A DNA stretch of 64,000 nt from positions 764-64,763 of the forward strand of contig JAKPBN010000382.1 in assembly GCA_029778945.1 (NCBI GenBank). The letters run 5' to 3'. Below the pieces are notes generated by a model. The model was not told the origin of the DNA. It saw nothing but the letters and a program-made list of their open reading frames with translations, and did no database searches. A program made the position numbers and the translations under genes. The DNA comes from Spirochaetota bacterium (GTDB lineage: Bacteria > Spirochaetota > Spirochaetia > Treponematales > Rectinemataceae). This document shows, piece by piece, positions 15,170 through 45,171 of the stretch (position 1 is its first letter; each line of letters opens with the position of its first letter).

Positions 15170-15712
15170 TCACTTCACGCCGGTCTTGCCGACCTTCTTG
15201 CGGATCTTCTCGTCCTCGTACCTGATGCCCTTGCCCTTGTAGGGCTCGGGAAGGCGGAGGCCCCGGACCTCGCTCGCGAACTTGCCAACCAGCCAACGAT
15301 CCGAACCGGAGATCACAACCTTCTGGTTGTTCGCCTCGGTGGTGGCGGTGAGGCCCTCGGGGACGGCCACCGCGAAGTCGGTGGAGTAGCCGAGGCTAAG
15401 AACGAGGAGCTTGCCCTGCACTTCGGCACGGTAGCCGACGCCGTTGATCACGAGGGTCTTCTTGAAGCCCTCGGAGACGCCTACGACCATGTTGGAGATG
15501 AGCTTGCGGTAAAGTCCATGGAAGGACCTGGCCTGCTTGGAGTCATTCTTCCGCGCAACATGGACAGCGTTGTCCTTGACGGCGATCTCGACTAGAGGAT
15601 CGTAGCTCTGGGAGAGCTTTCCCTTGGGCCCTTCTACGTTCACCTGGGTGGGGGTGATGCTCACCTTCACGCCCTGGGGGACAAGGACCGGCCGTATTCC
15701 GATTCTCGACAT
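15170..15712 (-). CDS. rplF: 50S ribosomal protein L6.
   Basis: [19 protein letters not shown]... matches L6. Confidence 0.95.
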
Positions 15713-15727
15713 TGCATTCCCCTTCGC

Positions 15728-16126
15728 TTACCAGACGGTGCAGATGAGCTCGCCGCCCACCTTTTTCTCGACGGCCTTCCTGCCGGTCGTCACGCCCTCA
15801 GAGGTCGAGACGATCAGCGTTCCGTAGCCGTTGAACACGCGCGGAAGCTCCTTGTATCCAGAATAGACGCGGCGCCCGGGCCTGGAGACCTTCTCCACTC
15901 CGTGGAGGATCGGGTCATTCGCGTCGTCGTACTTCAGGAAGATGCGGATGACATTGGAGCCTTCCGACTGGATCTTCTTGAAGTTCTTTATAAAACCCTC
16001 GGTCTTGAGGATCTTCACGATCTCGAGCTTGAGCTTGGAGGTGGGAATATCCACCTTCTCATGCCGGGCGGAGCTCGCGTTGCGGATCTTGGTCAGCATA
16101 TCCGCGATGGGATCAGAAACGCTCAT
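15728..16126 (-). CDS. rpsH: 30S ribosomal protein S8.
   Basis: ATG at 16124-16126 with [27 protein letters not shown]... matches S8. Confidence 0.92.
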
Positions 16127-16137
16127 CGCTTGCCCTC

Positions 16138-16323
16138 CTACCAGCTCGACTTGGTGACGCCAGGGATAAGACCGTCGGAAGCGTACTTCCGGAAGCAAAC
16201 CCTGCACATCGCAAACTTGCCCATGTAACCCCGTGCCCTTCCGCAGACCTTGCAGCGGCGGACGAGCCTCGTGGTGTACTTCGGCTTTTTCTCAGACTTA
16301 AGAATCATCGCCTTGCGCGCCAT
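16138..16323 (-). CDS. rpsN: 30S ribosomal protein S14 type Z (zinc-binding, 61 aa).
   Basis: [21 protein letters not shown] four-Cys motif typical of short S14. Confidence 0.92.
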
Positions 16324-16335
16324 TGACTACCTTCC

Positions 16336-17001
16336 TTACTTCCGAAAGGGCATGCCCATCTTGGCAAGCAGGCTTTTGGCCTCCTTGTCAGTCCTCGCGG
16401 TCGTGACGATCGCGATGTTGAGGCCCATGATCTTCTCGATCTTGTCGAAGTCGATCTCCGGGAAGATTATCTGCTCGGTCAGACCGAGGGAATAGTTCCC
16501 GTGCCCGTCGAAGGCGTTCGCATTGACGCCCCTGAAGTCCTTTACACGGGGGAGGGCCGAGTTCATCAGCCGGTCCAGGAACTCCCACATGTAGCTGCCG
16601 CGGAGGGTGACCTTGCAGCCGATCTCCTGGCCCTGGCGGATCTTGAACGTGGCGATGGACTTCTTCGCCTTGGTCTTGACCGCATGCTGGCCGGTGATCT
16701 GCGAAAGGTCCTCGACGGCCGCGTCCAGGATCTTCTTGTTCTCCTTCGCCTCGCCTACACCCATGGACACGATGACCTTGACGATCCTGGGGATCTGCAT
16801 CGTGGAGGTGTAGCTGAACTCCTTCATGAGCTCAGGGGCGACGGACTCGCGGTACTTCTTCTTCATGTTGGGGACATAGCCCTTGGGCAGGGGGGCGGAT
16901 TCGCCCTTCTTGTCCTCGGCGGCGGCCTTCTTCCTGGCGGCGGCCTCAGCGGCCTTTGCCTTCTTCTCAGCCGCGAGATCGGCGTTCTTGTTCTCGGCCA
17001 T
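16336..17001 (-). CDS. rplE: 50S ribosomal protein L5 with ~40-aa Lys/Ala-rich N-terminal extension.
   Basis: The L5 core is recognisable after an N-terminal [32 protein letters not shown] extension. Confidence 0.9.
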
Positions 17002-29107: not shown

Positions 29108-29728
29108 ATGAGCATCCTTCCTATCCAGGGTCTTGGGGTCGAGGTCTACGGGGAAAACGAGCTCGTGGCCCGGCTCATGACCGGGGAAGCCCACTATCGC
29201 GCCTGCATCTCCATCGGCAACCCCCGCCCCCTGCTGCGGGCCCCCTCCCCGGGCGAGGCCCTCCACCCCCTGATCAAGGGCTCCTTTGACCGGATCCTCC
29301 GCCTCTCCTTCTACGACCTGGAGGAGGTGGTCGAGCTTCCCGACCGGACTAGGCTCTCGCGCATCCCCTCCCACCGGGACGCCCTCAGGGTCCTGCGCTT
29401 CTACGAGGCCACCAAGGGCCAGACCGACGGCTGGACCGTCCACTGCTGGGCCGGCATCTCCCGCTCGACCGCCGTGGCCCTGGCCCTCCTGTATCGCATA
29501 ACCGGCGATGAGGCCGAGGCCGCGCGGCGCCTCGTGGCCATCCGCCCCGAGGCCATGCCCAACCACCGCCTTGTGAGGGCCGTCGACGCCCTTTTGGGCT
29601 CGAACCGGTCAGGCGTCCTCGAGGCCGTCTACCGGGACAGGCAGGACGCCCTGCGGGAGGAGCTGGACCGGGAGCTTGAGGAGCTGGACGAGGCCCCTGA
29701 GGAGCCGTCCGGGGATGGAAGGGCCTAG
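29108..29728 (+). CDS. Protein-tyrosine/dual-specificity phosphatase-like protein with CX5R P-loop (VHCWAGISRS). Paralog of 35844-36443.
   Basis: HCxxGxxRS signature. ~45% identity to the second copy over the full length, and a shared N-terminus (VEVYGE.EL..RL..GEAH...ISIGNPR). Confidence 0.7.
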   Translation: MSILPIQGLGVEVYGENELVARLMTGEAHYRACISIGNPRPLLRAPSPGEALHPLIKGSFDRILRLSFYDLEEVVELPDRTRLSRIPSHRDALRVLRFYEATKGQTDGWTVHCWAGISRSTAVALALLYRITGDEAEAARRLVAIRPEAMPNHRLVRAVDALLGSNRSGVLEAVYRDRQDALREELDRELEELDEAPEEPSGDGRA

Positions 29729-35843: not shown

Positions 35844-36443
35844 TTACTCGTCGAACGGCTCGAGCTCCTCGAGGAGATCGTCCGCCGAAAGGTCGAGCTC
35901 GGCCTTCATCTCCTCGATGCGTTCCGCCCGGATGCGGTCATTGACCTCACTGAGGCGGGAGCCCAGGATTTCATCAAAGAGGCCCACCACGAGTTGGAGG
36001 GGCCGGGCTATGGGCCGGATACGCCGGAGCTCCCGGCCGGCCTCCTCCTCGTCCCCATGGATGAGGTAGAGGAGTCCCAGGGCCACCGCAGGGGAACGGG
36101 AGAGGCCGCCCCAGCAATGGACGGTCCAGCCATCGGCGCGGCCCCGGGTCTCCTCGTAGAAGCGCACAACTTTCTCTATATCCTTCCTGAGGGCGATGCG
36201 CCGGGGTCGCATGTGGACCAGCTGGGCCTTGGTGTCCGCGTCAAAAAAGCCGAGACGCAAAACGTCGGGGAAGCTGGCCCTGAAGGCGGGCGGCACAAAG
36301 GTCCCTGGAGGCGTTCGGCCAAGGGGATAGCGTGGATTGCCAATGGAGACGAGGGCCGAGGTGTGGGCCTCCCCCCGGGCCAGGCGCTCCTGGAGCTCGG
36401 TCTCCCCATAGACCTCGACCCGGGGCCGGTCTGGGGCCTTCAT
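35844..36443 (-). CDS. CX5R phosphatase-like protein (VHCWGGLSRS), second paralog. Translationally coupled by an ATGA overlap to the upstream STAS gene.
   Basis: P-loop signature. ATG at 36441-43 overlaps the TGA of the 36440-37000 ORF. Confidence 0.7.
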   Translation of the reverse strand: MKAPDRPRVEVYGETELQERLARGEAHTSALVSIGNPRYPLGRTPPGTFVPPAFRASFPDVLRLGFFDADTKAQLVHMRPRRIALRKDIEKVVRFYEETRGRADGWTVHCWGGLSRSPAVALGLLYLIHGDEEEAGRELRRIRPIARPLQLVVGLFDEILGSRLSEVNDRIRAERIEEMKAELDLSADDLLEELEPFDE

Positions 36444-37000
36444 GCGAGGAAAACCTCCCCCTTCGCGCTTATGGACAAGGCAGTCTTGCACTCGGCGCAG
36501 GTCGCCCGGCCAGGCTTCGCGACCCGCCAGCGCCGATCGCAGATGGGGCAGGCAAAGGCATAGGGAAAGTTGACCGGGCCTGGGATAGGGTCGGGCTCCT
36601 TGAGCGCGGCAATGGCCTGGGCTGGGGTATCGGTGACCTTAAAGAACTGGCTGAAGCCTAGGAGCTGGAATATCTCAAAGACCGGTGGCGGTACGGAGCA
36701 GAGGGCCATGTCCCCGCCTCTCTCCCTCAGGCGCTTATAGATGGCGATGAGGGACCCAAGGCCAGGGGAGCCATCGTACTTCAGGCCGGAGAGATCGAGG
36801 ACGAGGCGGATAAAGCCAACCTCGATCGCCAGCCCGACCTGAACCATGAAGCGCTCGGCGGCAGGGGATGACATAAGGCCCTCTACCCTGAGGAGAAGGC
36901 CTCCCTCGAGTTCCTCGATCCTGCCCAGCCCCACCTGGACCCCGGTCCCGGCAATCGCGTCAAAGCCCGGAACGATGTCATCGTTCCCCATCGCTAGCAT
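36440..37000 (-). CDS. STAS (anti-sigma-factor-antagonist-like) domain fused to C-terminal zinc ribbon, copy 3 (phospho-site region degenerate: DGSPGLG).
   Basis: N-terminus MGNDDIVPGFDA. STAS core, then CPICDRRW...CAEC. Confidence 0.7.
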   Translation of the reverse strand: MLAMGNDDIVPGFDAIAGTGVQVGLGRIEELEGGLLLRVEGLMSSPAAERFMVQVGLAIEVGFIRLVLDLSGLKYDGSPGLGSLIAIYKRLRERGGDMALCSVPPPVFEIFQLLGFSQFFKVTDTPAQAIAALKEPDPIPGPVNFPYAFACPICDRRWRVAKPGRATCAECKTALSISAKGEVFLA

Positions 37001-37021: not shown

Positions 37022-37573
37022 CTAGCCAAGGTGGACCTCTCCGGCCTCGCCGATGATGAGGCGGGTATTGCAGTCCGGGCAGCAGAAGGGCCCCGGGGCC
37101 GAGGCGCTATGGGGGAGGTTGCAGATGGGACAGCTAAAGCGCCGAGGAAATGCGGGTACCTGCTCCTCGGCCCGGACCCTGAGAAAATGGGCCTTGGCGT
37201 CCTCGAGGGAATCCACAAAGGCAAAGAACTGCCCGAAGCCCATCATCTCCACGGTCGCCAGGGGCTTGGGATGGCAATTGAGGATCACCATGTCCCCGGA
37301 GAGGGGCCTCACCTTCTTGAGTATGGCCGAGAGGCTTCCTATGCCGGTGCTGCTGATGTATTCCAAGCCGGGGCACTCGAGGACAACCCGGCGAAAGCCC
37401 GCATCGATGGCCAGGATGACCTTGCGCAGGAAGGCAGGAGAGGTCTGGGTATCAAGATAGCCCTTGAGGCCTATGACGAGGCCAGCCTCCAGCCCCTCAA
37501 GGGACCGCAGGCTGAGCTCGATCCCAAAGCAAACCTCGTCGTCAAAGCCGGGAACCAGGTCATTATTATTCAT
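37022..37573 (-). CDS. STAS domain plus C-terminal zinc ribbon, copy 2 (ISSTGIG phospho-site-like motif).
   Basis: ATG 37571-73 (MNNNDLVPGFDD) with GGAG SD. C-terminus CPICN...CCPDC. Confidence 0.7.
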   Translation of the reverse strand: MNNNDLVPGFDDEVCFGIELSLRSLEGLEAGLVIGLKGYLDTQTSPAFLRKVILAIDAGFRRVVLECPGLEYISSTGIGSLSAILKKVRPLSGDMVILNCHPKPLATVEMMGFGQFFAFVDSLEDAKAHFLRVRAEEQVPAFPRRFSCPICNLPHSASAPGPFCCPDCNTRLIIGEAGEVHLG

Positions 37574-37598
37574 AGTTGCCCCTTTTAATCTCCGTATC

Positions 37599-38150
37599 TC
37601 ATTGGACAAAGACCTCGCCCTTTTCCGTGACCAGGAAGGAGGTCCTGCACTTTGTGCACCGGTAGAGGCCTGGGGATCTCACAAGGAGAGGGTGGGCGCA
37701 CAGGGGGCAGGGGAAATGCTTAGGGAAGGCCTGGGCGTCGCCGGAGGCTCCAGGGGACATAAAATGGTCCCGGGCCTCCGCCAGAGTAGCGGCAAAGTTA
37801 AAGTACTGGCTAAAGCCGATGAGGTCCAGGGTGGCCTTGGCCTTTGGGGCGCAGTCCAGAATGACAAGGTCGCCACCCAGGGGCTTGAGCCGCTTGCTCA
37901 GGGCGGTGAGGCAGCCGATCCCAGAGCTGGAGACAAAGCCCAGGCCGGCGGCGCCGAGGATGAGATTCCGGTAGCCGCCCTCGATGGCCTTCATGGCCCG
38001 GCCTTGGAGCGAAGCCGAGGTGTGGGCGTCCAAGTCGCCCACAAGCTCGATGAGGAGGCATCCCTCCAGGCCCGCGACAAGCTCGAGCCTCAGGGAAAGG
38101 CCGTCCCGCAGCTCGTCGTCAAAACCGGGCACAATGTCGTTGTTCGCCAT
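37599..38150 (-). CDS. STAS domain plus C-terminal zinc ribbon, copy 1 (VSSSGIG motif).
   Basis: ATG 38148-50 (MANNDIVPGFDD). C-terminus CPLCAH...CTKC. Confidence 0.7.
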   Translation of the reverse strand: MANNDIVPGFDDELRDGLSLRLELVAGLEGCLLIELVGDLDAHTSASLQGRAMKAIEGGYRNLILGAAGLGFVSSSGIGCLTALSKRLKPLGGDLVILDCAPKAKATLDLIGFSQYFNFAATLAEARDHFMSPGASGDAQAFPKHFPCPLCAHPLLVRSPGLYRCTKCRTSFLVTEKGEVFVQ

Positions 38151-38342
38151 GGCAATCCTTCCTTGCGTCCCGGGACCAGTCATAAAGCCCAAGCCTGGGC
38201 TCGCTCCGAAAGAAAGGATAGTGCAGGATCGTTGAATCGGCCATAGCAATTGAGAACCGGGCAGCAGGGAAGAGTAAGCCGCTTCCGAGCCGTCGTTGAA
38301 GCGAAAGTCCCGAAAATCCCAGAGGGGCAGGAGGGTCGGGAA

Positions 38343-40013
38343 CTAGTCCATTCTTTTAGGGAAACCCAGGGTCGCCATCGTTCCCGGCGCGGACCCAAAA
38401 GCGAGGCGGCCCCGGGCGCCGGAAAGAATCGTCTGTACCAGGGAAAGGCCCGAGAAGTCACCGGGAGGCTCATGTCCTGGGCCGTAGGGTCCAGGCAGGG
38501 CTCCGGGGGCTATCCCCGGGCCATCATCAGCTACCACGAGCTCGAGGTCGCCCTCGACCTCCCTGAGGGACACCCTTATCTCCCCGGCCCTGCCCTCGGG
38601 ATAGGCATGGCGGGCGCTATTGGAGACAAGTTCGGTCAGGGCGAACAAGAGGATCTGCTCGTACCAAGGATCGAAATCGCCCTGCAGCGTGGCGGCATAG
38701 TCGAGCCTGGCCTCGCTGTTCCAGATGGACAGGACTTCCCGAGCCAGGGCCCCCATCCTTGCCCCAAGGTCGGGGCTGGCCCAGGGGTGGAGCAGCCTAT
38801 CCATCAGGCATATCCCGGCCTCAAGAAAGGCGGTCTGCCTGCAGTGGGCGGTCCGCACCGCATCCCGGGCCTTCTCGGAGTCCAGGCCGGCCAGGGCGGA
38901 TGCGCAGAGCCGCTTGAGGAGGGCCTGGTCGGCGACGAGGGCCTCCCTGTACTTGACCAAGTCGGCTAGGCCGGCCTGGTTCATCCCGAAGCGGTTGGGC
39001 CAGTCCACATAGGCTTTGAGGATCTCTTCTGTAGAGGGAGGGAATACCATCCCGACCCCGGAGCGAGTGAGGGTCTCGACCAGCTTGGCTCTCTGTCCCT
39101 CCTCCCCACGCAGAGCCAGGACAAGACTATCCAGGCCCTGGCCCTCGATTGGGGGGATAGGCCCATACGACGGGGCATCCCAGGTCCAGGAGGACACTGC
39201 CCACGGGAAGACTACCCGTACCGAGCCATCCTCACCGGCTTCAAGCCGCGCGCCAAAGCCCTCCGCAAGGACGGCCGCCACCGAGCCCTTCCTTAGGGCG
39301 GCCGGGCACGGGGCACCAAGCCGGAGTTCCCCTCCTCCAGGTGTCCTTAGCACGATGAGGGGGATGGTCTTTTCCGGAGGGGAGCATTGTAGGATCTCCG
39401 CCAGGAGGGGGCCAAAGAGAAGGCATAGCTGTCTTGTGGCCGAAGGCCCTAGGGCAAGGTCCCCGAGCTCATACCTGATGGGCCTCTCTCTGCCTTCAAG
39501 GAAACCGGTCACGCTGGCTTCCACGGATTCCAGGAGATCCTGGAGCCTTATTGGGCGCCCGCCGAAGAGGGAGCCGAAGGAGTGGCGCTCCGCCTCCACC
39601 ATACCCATCAACGACGCCAGGAAGGGCAGGAGGGAGGACAGCTCGGGCTCAAGGCGCGTACTTGAGCCCTGGAGGGACAGGATCGACTGCCTAAGGGCAA
39701 TCTGGTTCTTAGCCCGGTGGCCCAGCTCGCGGGTGAGCATGTGCCTCTCCCGGATTCGTTCCTCATCAAAGCTGAAGGCTCCCTGCCTCCGGGCCAGAAG
39801 GAAGACTTGGCAGATGGTGAGATCCAGAACCTGACCCTCCTGAAGGGCAAGCTCGAGATCGACAAGGGCGAGGCCCTCCCGTCCAAGGGCTTCCCGGGCC
39901 GAACCTACAGCCACGAGCTCGAGGCCAGCCCCCTCAAGCAGGTCCCTGAGCCAGATCCGGTCTTTCTGCTCGGGCAAGAAGAGAAAAGCCTTGAGACCCT
40001 CGTTTTTTTCCAT
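38343..40013 (-). CDS. Hybrid signal-transduction histidine kinase (REC-like N-domain, HisKA_2-type H-box ELGHRAKNQ, C-terminal HATPase_c with N and G boxes).
   Basis: Motifs HMLTRELGHRAKNQIALRQ and ELVSNSARHA...DDGPGI...GLSLVQ. The first gene of the minus-strand operon ahead of the STAS triplet. Confidence 0.7.
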   Translation of the reverse strand: MEKNEGLKAFLFLPEQKDRIWLRDLLEGAGLELVAVGSAREALGREGLALVDLELALQEGQVLDLTICQVFLLARRQGAFSFDEERIRERHMLTRELGHRAKNQIALRQSILSLQGSSTRLEPELSSLLPFLASLMGMVEAERHSFGSLFGGRPIRLQDLLESVEASVTGFLEGRERPIRYELGDLALGPSATRQLCLLFGPLLAEILQCSPPEKTIPLIVLRTPGGGELRLGAPCPAALRKGSVAAVLAEGFGARLEAGEDGSVRVVFPWAVSSWTWDAPSYGPIPPIEGQGLDSLVLALRGEEGQRAKLVETLTRSGVGMVFPPSTEEILKAYVDWPNRFGMNQAGLADLVKYREALVADQALLKRLCASALAGLDSEKARDAVRTAHCRQTAFLEAGICLMDRLLHPWASPDLGARMGALAREVLSIWNSEARLDYAATLQGDFDPWYEQILLFALTELVSNSARHAYPEGRAGEIRVSLREVEGDLELVVADDGPGIAPGALPGPYGPGHEPPGDFSGLSLVQTILSGARGRLAFGSAPGTMATLGFPKRMD

Positions 40014-40061
40014 GCCCGCAAGTCTAGGCCTTGGCCCCGCCGGCCGCAAGGCTAATCTGCC

Positions 40062-40090
40062 TTGACGAACTCGCCATAGTGTATTATAAA
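40062..40090 (+). promoter_or_regulatory. Strong sigma70-like promoter (-35 TTGACG, 17-nt spacer, -10 TATAAA) with inverted repeat AGTGT-N7-ACACT overlapping the -10. Candidate operator.
   Basis: Read directly. Followed by SD GAAGGAGGG and ATG 40122. Confidence 0.55.
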
Positions 40091-40121
40091 CACTTTGTAG
40101 ACAAAATGCGAAGGAGGGTCC

Positions 40122-40940
40122 ATGCTAGGAGCGATCGTAGGGGACACCATTGGCAGCACCCGGGAATTCGATCCCATCAGGACTACGGACTTCGAGCTCT
40201 ACCCCAGGGGCTCAAGCTACACCGATGATACGGTGATGACCTGCGCGATCGCCGACGCCCTTTTGGGGCCAGGCGACTTTGGCCCCGCCATGCGAAGACT
40301 AGGCCGTCACTACATGGGCTCAGGCTATGGCGGACGCTTTTACCGCTGGATGGACGGCACCATCGAGGGTCCCTACAATAGCTTCGGCAACGGCTCGGCC
40401 ATGCGGGTGAGCCCCGTGGCCTGGGCTTTCGAGACCGAGACGGCCGTCCTGGCCGCCGCCCGGGCCACGGCTCTGCCCACCCACGACCATCCGGAAGGGG
40501 TCAAAGGCGCCGAGGCCACGGCCCTGGCCATTTTTCTGGCCAGGAAGGGTGTAGGCAAGACCGAGATCAAGGCCAGGATCGAGGAGTACTTTGGCTACAA
40601 TCTCTCCCGGTCCTTGGCCGCCATCAGGCCGGGCTATGGCTTCGATGAGACCTGCCCAAAGACCGTCCCGGAGGCGATCACTTCCTTCCTGGAAGCCGAC
40701 AGCTTCGAGGCCACGATCCGGAACGCCATATCTCTAGGGGGTGACGCCGATACCCTCGCGGCTATCGCCGGCTCCATCGCCGAGGCCTTCTGGGGCGGCG
40801 TGCCCGACGGCCTCCTTGGCCCGGCGATCGCGGGCCTGGACGAGAGGTTATACGGCATAGCCATGGCCTTCTGCGCCCGCTGGAGGCCCGAGGAGGCGGC
40901 CCGGCTCGCCAGGTTCCGGCCCGCGACGGACGGGAGCTAA
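40122..40940 (+). CDS. ADP-ribosylglycohydrolase family protein (DraG/ARH-like).
   Basis: N-terminus [17 protein letters not shown]... and TDDTVMT are typical ARH motifs. Confidence 0.75.
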
Positions 40941-40950
40941 GGAGGCGCTC

Positions 40951-41637
40951 ATGTACAGCTACAAATACCCCCACCCGGCGGTGACCGTGGACTGCGCCGT
41001 CTTTGGCCTCGACGATGGGGACCTCAAGGTCCTCCTCATCCAGCGGGACCTCGAGCCCTTCGCCGGCTCCTGGGCCCTGCCCGGAGGCTTTGTCAAGCTC
41101 GAGGAGGATCTCGAGGCCTCGGCCCGGCGGGAGCTCGAGGAGGAGACCGGAGTGACGGACCTCTACCTCGAGCAGCTGGCGACCTTTGGGGCCCCCGACC
41201 GGGATCCCCGGGAGAGGGTGATCACCGTGGCCTACCTCTCCATCGTCAACCTCTTTGACCACCCGGTCACGGCGGCCACCGATGCCCGCAAGGCCGCCTG
41301 GTTCCCTGTGGACGCCCTGCCCCGCCTGGCCTTTGACCACGAGGACATCCTGGACCTGGCCCTGGCCAGGCTCCGGTCCAAGCTTCGCTGGCAGCCCCTG
41401 GGCTTCGAGTTCCTGCCGGAGAAATTCACCCTCACCCAGGTCCAGCGCCTCTACGAGACTATCCTGGGTGAAGCCCTGGACAAGCGCAACTTCCGCAAGA
41501 AGATCCTCTCCACGGGCCTTCTTGTCCCCCTGGAGGAGGTCGAGACCGATGTCGCCCATCGCGCCGCCCAACTCTACCGCTTTGACCGCAAGGAATACGC
41601 CCGGCTCCAGAAGAAGGGCTACGGCTTCGAGATCTAG
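40951..41637 (+). CDS. Nudix-domain protein with C-terminal helical/winged-helix-like extension (NrtR-like architecture).
   Basis: Nudix box [24 protein letters not shown]. ~90-aa C-terminal domain after the Nudix fold. 11-nt gap to the ARH gene. Confidence 0.6.
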
Positions 41638-41664
41638 GATCAGCCCCTGCAGGAGTGCGACCAA

Positions 41665-42642
41665 ATGTTCAAGCTTCCGTTTTTCGAGGAGCTCGAGGGC
41701 TCACGCAGGATCCTCCTGGCCGGCTGTGGCGGGGGCTTCGACGTCTTTGGGGCCCTGCCCCTCTACTTCGCCCTCAAGGCCGAGGGCAAGGAAGTCCACC
41801 TCGCGAGCCTCTCCTTCTCCTTTCCCGACCTGGCCCTGCCCATCCTCTCCCTTCAGCCCGGCTGGAAGGGGCGGATCCTCACGCCCAACCTTGTCCGGGT
41901 GGACGCCGACACGCCGGAGTTCGCCCCCTACTTCCCCGAGCTCTTCCTCTCCCGCTGGTTCCGCTCCCGGGGCGAGGACGTCCCCCTCTGGTGCTTCCCC
42001 GTGAGCGGCGCCCGGCCCCTCGCCGCCTCCTACGGCCTCCTCTCGGAGAGGCTTGGCCTCGACGCCGTGGTCCTCGTGGACGGCGGAAGCGACAGCCTCA
42101 TGCGGGGCGACGAGGCCGACCTCGGCACCCCCTCGGAGGACGTGGCCTCCATGATCGCGGTCGACTCCCTCGACCTTCCAGTCAAGCTCCTGGCCTGCAT
42201 CGGCTTTGGCGCAGACTGGTTCCATGGCATCTCCCATGGCCGGGCCTTGGAGGCCACGGCCGCCCTCGCGGCCGCGGGGGGCTACCTCGGGCTCTTCTCC
42301 CTCCTCGACACCATGCCCGAGGCCAGGCTCTACCGGGAGGCCTGCGCCTATGTCTTCGAGCGCATGCCCGGCAGCGAGAGCATCGTCAACACCTCGATCC
42401 TCTCCGCTCTCGAGGGTCACTTTGGGGACTACCATGCCCTGAAGCGCACCAGCAAGGGCGGGCTCTGGATCAGCCCCCTCATGTCCGCCTACTGGTGCTA
42501 CAGGCTGTCCGCCGTCACGGGCCGCATGGCCTATCCTCGGGACAGCCTAGCCGAGACTGAGGGGATCATGGACCTCACGAGGATAATCATCGAGACCAAC
42601 CGCTCGGGGCCGAGACGGCCCCGGGTCGAGATACCCATCTAG
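41665..42642 (+). CDS. Conserved hypothetical protein (Gly-rich N-terminal LLAGCGGGFDVFGALPLY motif). Third gene of the ARH-Nudix operon.
   Basis: ORF only. No family assigned with confidence (possibly DUF1152-like). Confidence 0.5.
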   Translation: MFKLPFFEELEGSRRILLAGCGGGFDVFGALPLYFALKAEGKEVHLASLSFSFPDLALPILSLQPGWKGRILTPNLVRVDADTPEFAPYFPELFLSRWFRSRGEDVPLWCFPVSGARPLAASYGLLSERLGLDAVVLVDGGSDSLMRGDEADLGTPSEDVASMIAVDSLDLPVKLLACIGFGADWFHGISHGRALEATAALAAAGGYLGLFSLLDTMPEARLYREACAYVFERMPGSESIVNTSILSALEGHFGDYHALKRTSKGGLWISPLMSAYWCYRLSAVTGRMAYPRDSLAETEGIMDLTRIIIETNRSGPRRPRVEIPI

Positions 42643-43724
42643 GGCTGCAGGGCCGCGGCGATCGCCGGATGTGGGTTGGACAGGGCATGGACAAGGGCCG
42701 ACCTTCCGCCCTGGTCGACGGCGTTCAAATCAGCCCCGGCGGCCAGCAGGACACGAACAAGCTCGGGGTCGGAGCTAAAGGCGGCGGCGTGCATGAGGGG
42801 GGTCTTGCCGCTGGGACTTCGCTGATCGACCTCGGCTCCCGCCCTGAGGATTTCCCGGACCTCCCCCGGGCCGCCATTGCGGCAGGCCTGATAGAGGCCG
42901 CTTGCATCCCAGACCGCCCTTCCTGTTTTCCTCTTGGAAAGGACTAGCCTGAGCCTGGCTATGAGCTCGCGTTCGTTAAAAGGCTTGCAGATAAAGTCCG
43001 AAGGCCTGGTGAGGGCAGCCCGCCCCAAAGTCTTGCCATCGATATAGCTAGTGAGGTAGGCCAGGGCCGGCGCAAGAAACTTACCCATCTCCAAGGCGCA
43101 GTCAATCCCGTCCAAACCAGAGCCAGAGCCAAGATCGATGCCGGTGATCACGAGGGAGGGCCGCAGGCGCCGGGCCATGGAGAGGGCCTCCCAGGAGTCG
43201 GCGGCGATCCCGACCACCGGAAAGCCCAGCCTCTCGAGGCGCCGTTGAAGGTCTAGGGCTATAATTTTCTCGTCCTCGACGATCAGGACCTCGTTAGTCT
43301 CGACATCCGACTCCTGGCTGGCCGCGGATCCCCAGGACCGGGACTCCAGGGCCAAGAAAAGGCTCGAGCGTAAATCGCCCTCCTTGAAGGGCTTGAGCAA
43401 CAGGGCCGAAGGCCCGAAGGCGATGGCCCGGTCCAAGGTCGCGCTATCCGAAAATGAGGACAGGAGTATGACCGGGATCCCCAGGGCATCGCGAACCTCA
43501 TCGGCTGCCCGGATCCCGTCCCCTCCCCCGGCCAGCCGAGCCTCGGAGAGGATAAGATCGGGCCTCAGTTCCCGGGCCTTGTAGAGGACCCCCTCCGCGT
43601 AGGCCACCAGGCCGGCAAGCTCATAGCCAAAGCGCTCGAGCCTGCGCCCCAGGTCCAGGGCGATTCGCTCATCCGGCTCCGCGACGAGGATCCGCTTTTT
43701 CCTGACCAACTCCTGCTCAGACAC
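42639..43724 (-). CDS. Tandem receiver (REC-REC) domain protein with C-terminal ankyrin repeats.
   Basis: Two CheY-like folds (ILVAEPDE..., VLIVEDEKII...), then ANK repeats (GKTPLMHAAAFS...LLAAGADLNAVDQGGRSAL). Probable GTG start ~43724, just after the radical SAM stop. The first REC has Ser-Glu where the phospho-Asp is expected. Confidence 0.6.
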   Translation of the reverse strand: MSEQELVRKKRILVAEPDERIALDLGRRLERFGYELAGLVAYAEGVLYKARELRPDLILSEARLAGGGDGIRAADEVRDALGIPVILLSSFSDSATLDRAIAFGPSALLLKPFKEGDLRSSLFLALESRSWGSAASQESDVETNEVLIVEDEKIIALDLQRRLERLGFPVVGIAADSWEALSMARRLRPSLVITGIDLGSGSGLDGIDCALEMGKFLAPALAYLTSYIDGKTLGRAALTRPSDFICKPFNERELIARLRLVLSKRKTGRAVWDASGLYQACRNGGPGEVREILRAGAEVDQRSPSGKTPLMHAAAFSSDPELVRVLLAAGADLNAVDQGGRSALVHALSNPHPAIAAALQP

Positions 43725-45033
43725 GGTGGCCCCCGTCTTTAAGGTGGCCCGTGATCGCCGCCACCTCGCGGTTGATCCGCGCGACCGCCTCCCCGTCCCC
43801 AGCCTCAACCCCAGCCTCGTGCATCCGCTGGGCGACCATGGTCGTAAAGGCGCGCAGGGAGCAGGGATGGATACAGGTCGTGCCGAAGACCTCAGGATCG
43901 ACCAGGGGCAGGTAGTCGGCGATCCGACCCTCGGCATGGAGGCGATAGATAAAGGCATCCTGCATATGGTTGAGAATATCCACCATGGGCCGGAGGTGGA
44001 AATTGCCGTAGCCCTCCCCGCCCTGGGCTATCCGGCAGGTGGAGAGCTCGCCATTAGCCTTGAGGGTAAGGTGGGGATAGGGCCGATAAAAGGCCTTGCA
44101 GCGCAGGATCTCCGCGGGGAAAGCATCGAGGCTGTAGCCGATGCCACCGCCTTTGCGGGCCCCGTTTCCAATGTCTATAAAGTTGCTCACGATGTTTGTC
44201 TCGTCGGCGCAGAATCGCTCCATCGCGCCGTCGCTCTGCCCATAGAGCAGGGGAGCGAGGTCCAGCACGAGGCGAGCAAGCTCATCCTTCGGTCCCGACC
44301 TGGCGAGGAGAGACAGCCTCGGCTCAAGACTGGCTTCGCGCACCCTCCCCAGGCCCCCGACAACCCGGGCATAGAGTCCGGGCGAGCCCCGGGACCGGTC
44401 ATGGACGGCCTCGGGCCCATCGATACTAAAGACGACATGGCTTACCCCATGGTCGCGGAGGTCGTCGAGGTAAGCCCGATCATCCCGGTACCGTCTGCCT
44501 GCGGCCTCGAAGTCCTTCTCGCCCAGGAACCAGCCGTTGCTCAACACGCTGATGGTCTGGGCGCCGCGAGCCCTGATGCTGCGGGCCAGGCCGAGCCAGC
44601 CTGAGCCGAACTTCGACACCTCGCCGCCGGTAAAGGAATAGTTCGGGATGGCCATGTCGGCGAAGACGGCGGTCGCCGCGTCGAGGGCGGCCAGGTCGTT
44701 CTCGGTGCGCAGGCCTACCCCGGCGTTGTAGCAATGCTCGCAGGAGAGATTGCAGCACGTGGTGAATTCCACCACGACCTTTATCACGTTCTCAAGGGGA
44801 TTGCGCCGGTAGCGGAGGGCGATCGCGGCCTCGTCCACGGGCTCCTCGACGGCCTCGACCCAGGCCCGGGCCATGAGGTCTCTCTGGGCCCGACTGCCCT
44901 GCCAGGGCTCGTGGCCCCGCCCAAGGAGGGCGACCAGGGCCTCGTCGAGTCCGGGCAGGGGCGCACGTCCAGGCTCTTTTCTATCGACGGCGAGGGCCCG
45001 CCTGTGGCCGACATTGGTCAGGGCTAACTGCAT
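43717..45033 (-). CDS. Radical SAM domain protein (CNLSCEHC = CX3CX2C) with additional C-terminal Cys clusters.
   Basis: ATG 45031-33 with SD GGGGAGAA. Canonical radical-SAM cysteine triad. Confidence 0.65.
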   Translation of the reverse strand: MQLALTNVGHRRALAVDRKEPGRAPLPGLDEALVALLGRGHEPWQGSRAQRDLMARAWVEAVEEPVDEAAIALRYRRNPLENVIKVVVEFTTCCNLSCEHCYNAGVGLRTENDLAALDAATAVFADMAIPNYSFTGGEVSKFGSGWLGLARSIRARGAQTISVLSNGWFLGEKDFEAAGRRYRDDRAYLDDLRDHGVSHVVFSIDGPEAVHDRSRGSPGLYARVVGGLGRVREASLEPRLSLLARSGPKDELARLVLDLAPLLYGQSDGAMERFCADETNIVSNFIDIGNGARKGGGIGYSLDAFPAEILRCKAFYRPYPHLTLKANGELSTCRIAQGGEGYGNFHLRPMVDILNHMQDAFIYRLHAEGRIADYLPLVDPEVFGTTCIHPCSLRAFTTMVAQRMHEAGVEAGDGEAVARINREVAAITGHLKDGGHRV

Positions 45034-45171
45034 TTTGTTATTCTCCCCACGGAATCGAGGTCCGCAGGACAAAGCATATCCCCCCGGGAGGAGAGGCCGC
45101 AAGCGCATATCCGGCAATCCTTGTTCCCGCGACCTTGGCGCGATACAGTGGACTGTGGGGGAAAAATACAT

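Follow-up and report, generated by a model that had tools for sequence, protein, structure and literature searches.

A conserved, predicted NrtR-type operon of a Rectinemataceae spirochaete joins an ADP-ribosylglycohydrolase to a DUF1152 protein and suggests a role for DUF1152 in ADP-ribose metabolism

The window analyzed here, a 64,000-nucleotide stretch of contig JAKPBN010000382.1 from a Spirochaetota bacterium of the family Rectinemataceae (GCA_029778945.1), carries a compact three-gene operon on its forward strand. The first gene (40122-40940) encodes a 272 amino acid ADP-ribosylglycohydrolase of the ARH/ARG family (ARH; Pfam PF03747), the second (40951-41637) a 228 amino acid NrtR-family regulator consisting of a Nudix domain and a winged helix (Pfam NUDIX and NrtR_WHD) and the third (41665-42642) a 325 amino acid DUF1152 protein (Pfam PF06626), a predicted metal-dependent enzyme. 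All three Pfam assignments exceed the curated cut-offs. The genes are separated by 10 nt (arh/nrtR) and 27 nt (nrtR/duf1152), which as coordinate differences are the 11 and 28 nt given in an earlier, sequence-only reading of this DNA, and the three open reading frames (ORFs) lie as that reading described them. Many ORFs overlap the operon in other frames, none with a family match; such ORFs commonly arise from high G+C content. The region upstream of arh reads ccTTGACGaactcgccatAGTGTATTATAAACACTttg and contains the near-consensus promoter noted earlier, with a -35 hexamer TTGACG (40062-40067), a 17-nt spacer and a -10 hexamer TATAAA (40085-40090). A Shine-Dalgarno sequence AAGGAGG (40111-40117) is located 4 nt ahead of the ATG of the first gene. 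This layout strongly supports a single sigma-70-type promoter driving arh-nrtR-duf1152. The promoter is not found in the output of our consensus promoter scan because the scan demands T as the final -10 base, which here is A. No riboswitch or other RNA family was detected by Rfam between 39500 and 43000, leading us to reject an NAD+ (nicotinamide adenine dinucleotide) riboswitch, and a terminator scan returned nothing convincing 3' of the operon.

The -10 hexamer is embedded in a palindrome, AGTGT-N7-ACACT (AGTGTATTATAAACACT, 40078-40094), that forms the core of a predicted 21-bp NrtR-type operator (ATAGTGTATTATAAACACTTT, 40076-40096). Steric repression classically relies on an operator in such a position, between -35 and +1. 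At up to one mismatch the palindrome occurs only once in the window, and taken by itself this is not beyond chance, with 22 of 100 window shuffles yielding at least one match. We consider the palindrome real because it is conserved across loci and not on account of single-window statistics. The related loci compared here are 80 loci encoding DUF1152 relatives (one genome per species) plus several taken from metagenome assemblies, numbered L002 and so on. Across 1.15 Mb of related-locus DNA, 15 exact copies of the palindrome are present compared to 0.67 expected, and the composite pattern TTGAC-N(1-13)-[AC]GTGT-N7-ACAC[TC] occurs 16 times and not once in 30 shuffles. Every composite occurrence precedes an NrtR-linked operon.

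The palindrome behind a TTGAC -35 element precedes every orthologous module that we found in Spirochaetota, Planctomycetota and Verrucomicrobiota. The exact core lies ahead of NrtR-linked operons in L002, L006, L007, L038, L080, L086, L087 and L088, with one mismatch in L076. Allowing up to one mismatch, the gene that directly follows the operator is DUF1152 as well as SIR2 in L002, L006 and L007, nrtR in L038 and L087 (also in L076, with its one mismatch), pncB in L080 and ARH in L086 and L088. In L088 an exact AGTGT-N7-ACACT also precedes a Cys-phosphatase-like gene. In the 11 single-site orthologous promoters the -35 element, TTGAC(A/G/T/C), is positioned 10-11 nt 5' of the palindrome, and the AT-rich spacer of the orthologous operators provides the -10 element at the same position as TATAAT, TATTAT or TATAGT. 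Two loci of the PVC (Planctomycetes, Verrucomicrobia, Chlamydiae) group, L038 and L076, possess two tandem sites immediately after the -35 element. The resulting 21-bp palindromic consensus, aT-AGTGT-N7-ACACT-At, contains GT-N7-AC, the core that the majority of NrtR motifs share (Rodionov et al., 2008, PMC2330246). Its TG-N9-CA spacing is that of the T8-G9...C19-A20 steps contacted in the crystal structure of the arabinose regulator BtAraR bound to DNA (PMC4666351). Together, sequence and cross-locus conservation strongly support the identification of the palindrome over the -10 element as an NrtR-type operator, confirming what had been called operator-like, and the conservation of the promoter-operator unit and gene triad across phyla. 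The regulatory half of the system is ordinary for the NrtR family, yet it is unusually well supported by footprinting across loci.

Three further observations concern promoters and operators. The promoter scan reports a weak candidate on the minus strand, TTCGCA-18-TATAAT (40112 to 40083, 10 of 12 matches), that shares the AT-rich core of the operator and could serve the divergent histidine-kinase-like gene (38343-40049, minus strand). It is not conserved among the other loci; as it uses the operator core, NrtR may also gate the kinase-like gene. When the DNA immediately 5' of DUF1152 in other phyla was searched for GT-N7-AC palindromes, only one further candidate emerged, located in a metagenome-assembled genome of the Bacteroidota (L078), where the variant palindrome TGTGTATATTGAACACA lies 29 nt upstream of DUF1152 with no NrtR gene nearby and may represent a diverged NrtR-type operator. 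In L038 a second tandem pair of NrtR operators (15229-15268) is found 7 kb away from the module, ahead of a 378 amino acid ORF (15222-16358) that has no family assigned and is a possible further regulon member.

The regulator contains an N-terminal Nudix domain (PF00293, E = 4.1e-21, residues 16-134) and a C-terminal NrtR_WHD domain (PF21906, E = 3e-28, residues 151-211), and it aligns over its full length with the structures of BtAraR from Bacteroides thetaiotaomicron (5bs6, E = 6e-54) and Shewanella NrtR (3gz5, E = 2e-31). The C-terminal helical domain is thus a DNA-binding fold in an NrtR architecture, as the sequence-only reading proposed. Nine orthologues from Spirochaetota, Planctomycetota and Verrucomicrobiota share 61-95% identity. 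Their recognition helix contains an invariant DKRNFR, followed by K in eight of the nine, in agreement with the invariant operator, and the same DKRNFRK helix is conserved in BtAraR. The Nudix box is fully kept, with G46-x5-E52-x7-R60 E61 L62 x E64 E65 x G67 invariant. This signature is lost in most NrtR proteins (PMC2330246) and in AraR (PMC4666351), and its presence correlates with ADP-ribose pyrophosphatase activity, the characterized member that retains it, NuhA, being active (PMC2330246). Because the box is intact and invariant as in NuhA, the regulator is probably bifunctional, acting both as an ADP-ribose sensor and repressor and as an ADP-ribose pyrophosphatase.

Comparison with characterized members of the family places the regulator more precisely. 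SoNrtR of Shewanella and SyNrtR (Slr1690) of Synechocystis (PMC2330246) likewise combine a Nudix domain with a winged helix, a 21-bp GT-N7-AC palindrome over the promoter, autoregulation and ADP-ribose as the expected effector. In contrast to the window regulator, their Nudix signature is degenerate and they control NAD biosynthesis genes instead of an ADP-ribose eraser and DUF1152. NuhA from Synechococcus PCC 7002 (cited in PMC2330246) possesses the intact GX5EX7REUXEEXGU signature, suggesting an enzyme and regulator in one protein. It differs in lineage and regulon, and its high ADP-ribose pyrophosphatase activity was measured whereas the window protein is known from sequence. BtAraR (PMC4666351) shares the recognition helix and the operator geometry, including tandem operators as in L038 and L076, but is an L-arabinose-responsive regulator of arabinose genes whose Nudix box has degenerated. 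In Streptomyces an NrtR-family gene adjoins an ADP-ribosylglycohydrolase gene, draG (PMC2330246). That pair belongs to another operator family and has no described DUF1152 partner, and the window ARH is not a DraG equivalog.

The ARH protein matches ADP_ribosyl_GH (PF03747) over residues 1-225 with E = 2.4e-31 and 109.9 bits against a gathering score of 26.2, in line with the ARH/DraG-family hydrolase initially proposed. Its metal-binding motifs YTDDT and GGDADT (TDDT and GGDxDT) align with those of ARH3 (6g1p). Identity with two equivalogs was rejected on score, namely DraG (TIGR02662, 46.7 bits against a cut-off of 337) and Tri1 (NF041672, 32.7 bits against 490). Judging from the sequence, the substrate may be ADP-ribosylated protein (Arg or Ser), O-acyl-ADP-ribose or a nucleic acid.

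The third protein had been described as uncharacterized, with an LLAGCGGGFD motif that we locate at residues 17-26. It matches DUF1152 with E = 6e-12 and 45.8 bits against a gathering score of 27, as do all 44 of its aligned relatives, ruling out an unrelated housekeeping family. DUF1152 comprises 1,997 clusters at 50% identity (E ≤ 1e-3). Our literature search found no mention of 'DUF1152' or 'PF06626'. Pfam searches with all 44 members at E ≤ 10 returned no other family and no PIG-L, NCBIfam gave no match and searches of PDB chains with the single sequence and the 44-sequence profile yielded only noise at E > 0.4. An AlphaFold2 model based on the 44-sequence alignment is of high confidence, with a mean predicted local distance difference test score (pLDDT) of 94.2 and a predicted template modeling score (pTM) of 0.93, and shows alternating strands and helices in a Rossmann-like arrangement. 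Foldseek comparison with the PDB gives only weak matches (TM-score up to 0.37), headed by LmbE/PIG-L hydrolases and sugar-nucleotide enzymes. Compared with LmbE/PIG-L metallohydrolases (MshB, Dbv21, PH0499, TT1542 and GalB), DUF1152 shows 9-13% identity and possesses an extra C-terminal half. The His/Asp/His zinc site of LmbE was considered and rejected on sequence, the triad not being recognizable and H187 and H191 not being universal.

Residue conservation was evaluated in an alignment of 92 sequences, the window protein and 91 relatives with 30-52% identity to it. Near-invariant positions comprise G20-x-G22 G23 G24-x-D26 immediately after strand 1, D139 G140 G141-x-D143 immediately after the central strand, P91 E92, G148-x-E150, D159 and S239. 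D26, E92, D139, D143, E150 and D159 are each at least 96% conserved, D149, E158 and D184 are mostly acidic, and H187 and H191 exchange with Asp or Glu as metal ligands do. In the model, two glycine loops and carboxylates appear at the C-terminal edge of a parallel sheet, a geometry derived from secondary structure only that would be the signature of a divalent-metal enzyme with a phosphorylated ligand. The predicted Rossmann-like fold with its conserved glycine loop and carboxylate pocket thus points to a ligand-processing enzyme. Outside cellular genomes, DUF1152 is present in two giant-virus contigs (L092 and L093; IMG/VR, 373 and 259 kb), the only viral contigs with the family, and no phage contig encodes it. 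Homologues of the Klosneuvirus type are found in BFVD (A0A3G5AD54, A0A3G4ZPD9 and A0A1V0SJT1; 30% identity, TM-score 0.8).

The gene triad recurs with shuffled order and different flanking genes. The closest relatives, given with their percent identity, are organized as ARH-NrtR-DUF1152 (L086, 90%), NrtR-DUF1152-ARH (L087, 71%) and ARH-NrtR-DUF1152-ARH (L088, 67%). L002 and L006 (62-63%) contain operator-DUF1152-HDAC-like followed by operator-SIR2-(VWA-Macro)-NrtR-ARH/MavL, with the VWA-Macro part present in L006. More distant arrangements are pncB-nrtR-ARH-DUF1152-pncA-PARG-ARH in Aeoliella (L080), nrtR-DUF4291-ARH-ARH-Tpt1-x-x-DUF1152-Macro-ARH in Prosthecobacter (L076) and, in a planctomycete (L059), a NadR-type NMNAT/kinase gene followed by DUF1152-Macro-ARH. 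Overlaps of 4 nt between the stop codon of one gene and the start codon of the next link DUF1152 to ARH (L087 and L088) and the NadR-type gene to DUF1152 (L059). In several Armatimonadota and Abditibacteriota loci, DUF1152 is followed after about 20 nt by a YmdB-like Macro gene. A 141 amino acid family without Pfam or NCBIfam match (TLYRPVG..EL.LI..SG...FPPRL..QPIFYPV) recurs between Tpt1/ARH genes and DUF1152 (L038 5474-5899, L076 7567-8007 and L068 6309-6692).

To quantify these neighborhoods, we queried ADP-ribose- and NAD-related families (Macro, ARH, PARG, Tpt1, SIR2, NrtR, PncA/B and NadR). Their density in 84 loci is 9.7 genes per 100 kb at 0-2 kb from DUF1152, 6.9 at 2-4 kb and about 1 at 4-8 kb, an approximately 10-fold enrichment within 4 kb. 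In a census of 82 DUF1152 loci at a radius of 4 kb the commonest neighbors are Macro (8 loci) and ARH (7 loci), in addition to Tpt1, PARG and SIR2. Around DUF1152 in the related loci we see no further functional theme shared between phyla. On a eukaryotic contig (GCA_020536535.1; L089, 6001-8227), a single protein combines DUF1152 with an NMNAT-like cytidylyltransferase domain (TIGR00482, E = 6e-21). The fusion gene contains introns and its neighbors are of the CLP1/NOL9, Arf/Ras and palmitoyl-thioesterase types. Operon structure, operator placement, neighborhood statistics and the domain fusion are the basis on which comparative genomics ties DUF1152 to ADP-ribose and NAD metabolism, a predicted association that extends over at least six phyla.

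We interpret the operon as an auto-repressed, ADP-ribose-inducible unit for the removal and disposal of ADP-ribose and assign this reading a probability of roughly 0.6. As expected from family knowledge, a dimer of apo-NrtR would occupy the operator and block RNA polymerase. NAD-consuming reactions carried out by sirtuins, ADP-ribosyltransferases, NADases and possibly phage enzymes would raise free ADP-ribose, which would bind the Nudix domain, rotate the winged helices and release the repressor, allowing expression of the operon. Relief of NrtR repression by ADP-ribose has been reported (PMC2330246). ARH would free ADP-ribose from modified substrates or from O-acyl-ADP-ribose. Given the invariant and intact catalytic box of its Nudix domain, the regulator probably hydrolyzes ADP-ribose as well, to AMP and ribose-5-phosphate, and so would consume its own inducer and reset the switch. 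The role of DUF1152 is the most speculative step. A cytoplasmic, divalent-metal-dependent protein could use its two glycine loops and its cluster of carboxylates to bind a ligand that carries phosphate or ribose and might process ADP-ribose, a derivative or conjugate (O-acyl-ADP-ribose, ADP-ribose-1''-phosphate or Appr>p) or breakdown products, in the slot held by phosphatases in other ARG-centered systems. The autoregulated ADP-ribose processing unit suggested by the sequence-only reading therefore stands as far as operator, NrtR and gene triad are concerned, while the response to ADP-ribose is carried over from the family.

Several points weigh against this interpretation. ADP-ribose is an assumed effector, judged probable from family knowledge and regulon content (ARH, Macro, SIR2, PncA/B and PARG). 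The regulator belongs to the NrtR family by architecture and falls outside the NCBIfam equivalog for ADP-ribose-responsive NrtR repressors (NF050029, 190.8 bits against a cut-off of 400), and its nearest solved structure is the arabinose-responsive BtAraR and not an ADP-ribose-responsive NrtR. A Nudix regulator that itself cleaves ADP-ribose would also leave no evident need for DUF1152. The query proteins used for the enrichment analysis were drawn from the DUF1152-proximal zone, which favors that zone. Finally, 63 of the 82 DUF1152 loci have no ADP-ribose- or NAD-related neighbor within 4 kb, and the link may consequently hold only for part of the family and be strongest for the clade of the window protein.

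The best-surviving alternative is a conflict system. Widespread ARG-centric neighborhoods, in which a repressor of the Nudix-helix-turn-helix (Nudix-HTH) or WYL type is accompanied by coupled phosphatases, chaperones (vWA or others) and Macro or NADAR add-ons, have been described and proposed to counter phage ADP-ribosylation (Iyer, Burroughs, Anantharaman and Aravind, 2022, PMC9503650, section 3.8). Under this explanation the operon would be off until a phage ADP-ribosyltransferase (ART) acts, the released ADP-ribose would induce it, and ARH together with DUF1152 in the place of the phosphatase would erase the viral modification. The published description fits in many respects, including an ARG to which neither ART nor sirtuin is linked, negative regulation by a Nudix-HTH protein, accessory ADP-ribose-processing enzymes, planctomycete hosts and, in relatives, Cys-phosphatase-like, vWA and Macro partners. 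No SIR2, Tpt1, DUF4291, Macro, PARG or ART homologue is detectable in the 64-kb window, and gene order is shuffled among close relatives. A Cys-phosphatase-like family of 193-215 amino acids with a V/I-HCxxGxxRS P-loop (Pfam DSPc below cut-off, E = 1e-3 to 9e-6) may correspond to the 'rhodanese-phosphatase' partner. Its members lie in or beside the NrtR/ARH/DUF1152 module in five related loci (L002 11632-12213 and 12183-12779, L006 25-495, L086 3073-3693, L087 1-312 and L088 769-1350), and L006 adds VWA-Macro. In the window itself no rhodanese-phosphatase, calcineurin-like, HD or HAD phosphatase of the kind coupled to ARG-centric systems is present inside the operon, and two Cys-phosphatase-like paralogues are located 4-11 kb upstream (29108-29728, plus strand; 35844-36491, minus strand).

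Other features fit a defense function poorly. PADLOC matches neither ARH nor DUF1152, and DUF1152 is not named in the main text of PMC9503650. Regulator (61-95% identity) and operator (invariant) are unusually conserved and not fast-evolving. The module of L080 sits inside a pncB/pncA NAD-salvage operon while, at odds with the ARG-centric template, those of L002 and L006 stand beside SIR2 and an HDAC-like gene, contexts that resemble housekeeping turnover of NAD and ADP-ribose. The window is ordinary chromosome with rpoB/rpoC nearby, and the family is missing from phage contigs. Since the template fits while DUF1152, the conservation and the embedding in NAD-salvage or sirtuin operons differ, we file the operon as a variant of the ARG-centric/NrtR type. 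Housekeeping ADP-ribose turnover is favored, and anti-phage repair appears unlikely by comparison.

Somewhat less probable still is a reading of DUF1152 as an NAD-salvage or pyridine-nucleotide enzyme acting on nicotinamide mononucleotide (NMN), nicotinic acid mononucleotide (NaMN), nicotinamide riboside or NAD, with the operon being an ordinary NrtR regulon for NAD homeostasis plus ARH. The eukaryotic NMNAT-like fusion, the overlap of the NadR-type NMNAT/ribosylnicotinamide kinase gene with the DUF1152 start in L059 and the pncB-nrtR-ARH-DUF1152-pncA order of L080 are consistent with it, and classical NrtR regulons consist of NAD biosynthesis and salvage genes (PMC2330246). However, the most common DUF1152 neighbors are ADP-ribose erasers and not biosynthetic genes, and neither the window operon nor its closest relatives contain an NAD biosynthesis gene.

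The sequence-only reading had suggested the third protein as an ADP-ribosyl acceptor or writer, that is, a protein whose modification ARH reverses or an enzyme that installs it. Tight coupling to an eraser and an ADP-ribose sensor would suit such a role, and some Rossmann-fold enzymes, the sirtuins, do transfer ADP-ribose. However, the confident model shows no ART fold, its top structural matches are hydrolases and sugar-nucleotide enzymes, and invariant glycine loops with six strand-end carboxylates form the pattern of a catalytic metal-binding pocket and not of a modified surface residue. In L076, moreover, DUF1152 co-occurs with the dedicated ART-fold proteins DUF4291 and Tpt1. We consequently regard the proposal as unsupported and highly improbable. 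Least credible of all is a sugar-responsive, AraR/XylR-like regulator in an operon unrelated to ADP-ribose, which we reject although BtAraR matches better than SoNrtR and the ribose/arabinose-contacting residues are common to both types (PMC4666351), as neither the window nor any related module contains sugar-utilization genes, the regulated genes are ARH, Macro, SIR2, PncA/B and PARG, and the Nudix signature lost in AraR proteins is intact and invariant here.

Upstream of the operon, on the minus strand, three tandem STAS-domain paralogues (36440-37000, 37022-37609 and 37599-38249), each with a C-terminal CPxC...C..C zinc-ribbon-like tail, are followed by the histidine-kinase-like gene, which encodes a 568 amino acid HATPase_c protein and diverges from the operon promoter. 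A STAS gene is likewise found upstream of the module in L086. Downstream, a minus-strand gene for two receiver domains and ankyrin repeats (42639-43958) is convergent with the operon and overlaps its stop by 4 nt. The 3' end of a radical-SAM gene (43717-45171, minus strand) overlaps the receiver/ankyrin gene by about 240 nt as called, and because of this overlap the start codons are probably mis-assigned.

NrtR, its operator logic, the nrtR-draG pair (2008) and the predicted ARG-centric template are already known; the DUF1152 partner appears to be new. We tentatively propose, at less than even odds, that DUF1152 represents a new class of ADP-ribose-processing enzyme, namely a hydrolase or phosphohydrolase that depends on metal, has a Rossmann-like structure unlike the Macro, ARH, PARG, NADAR and Nudix folds and acts on ADP-ribose or a derivative or conjugate in bacteria, archaea, some eukaryotes and giant viruses and that in several phyla would be part of a horizontally mobile NrtR/ARH module whose regulator destroys its own inducer. 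ADP-ribosylation and NAD depletion are central in bacterial stress responses, toxin-antitoxin systems and phage defense. Only a few kinds of enzyme are known to remove or recycle ADP-ribose, namely Macro, ARH, PARG, NADAR and Nudix proteins. The locus, with its defined promoter-operator, likely inducer and two partners of known chemistry, offers a testable entry point to DUF1152, and the regulator is of interest itself as an NrtR protein with a strictly conserved catalytic Nudix box that may degrade its own inducer. If DUF1152 does process ADP-ribose, this would add a new fold to the ADP-ribose toolkit and assign a function to its homologues in cyanobacteria, myxobacteria, Deinococcus, giant viruses and eukaryotes.

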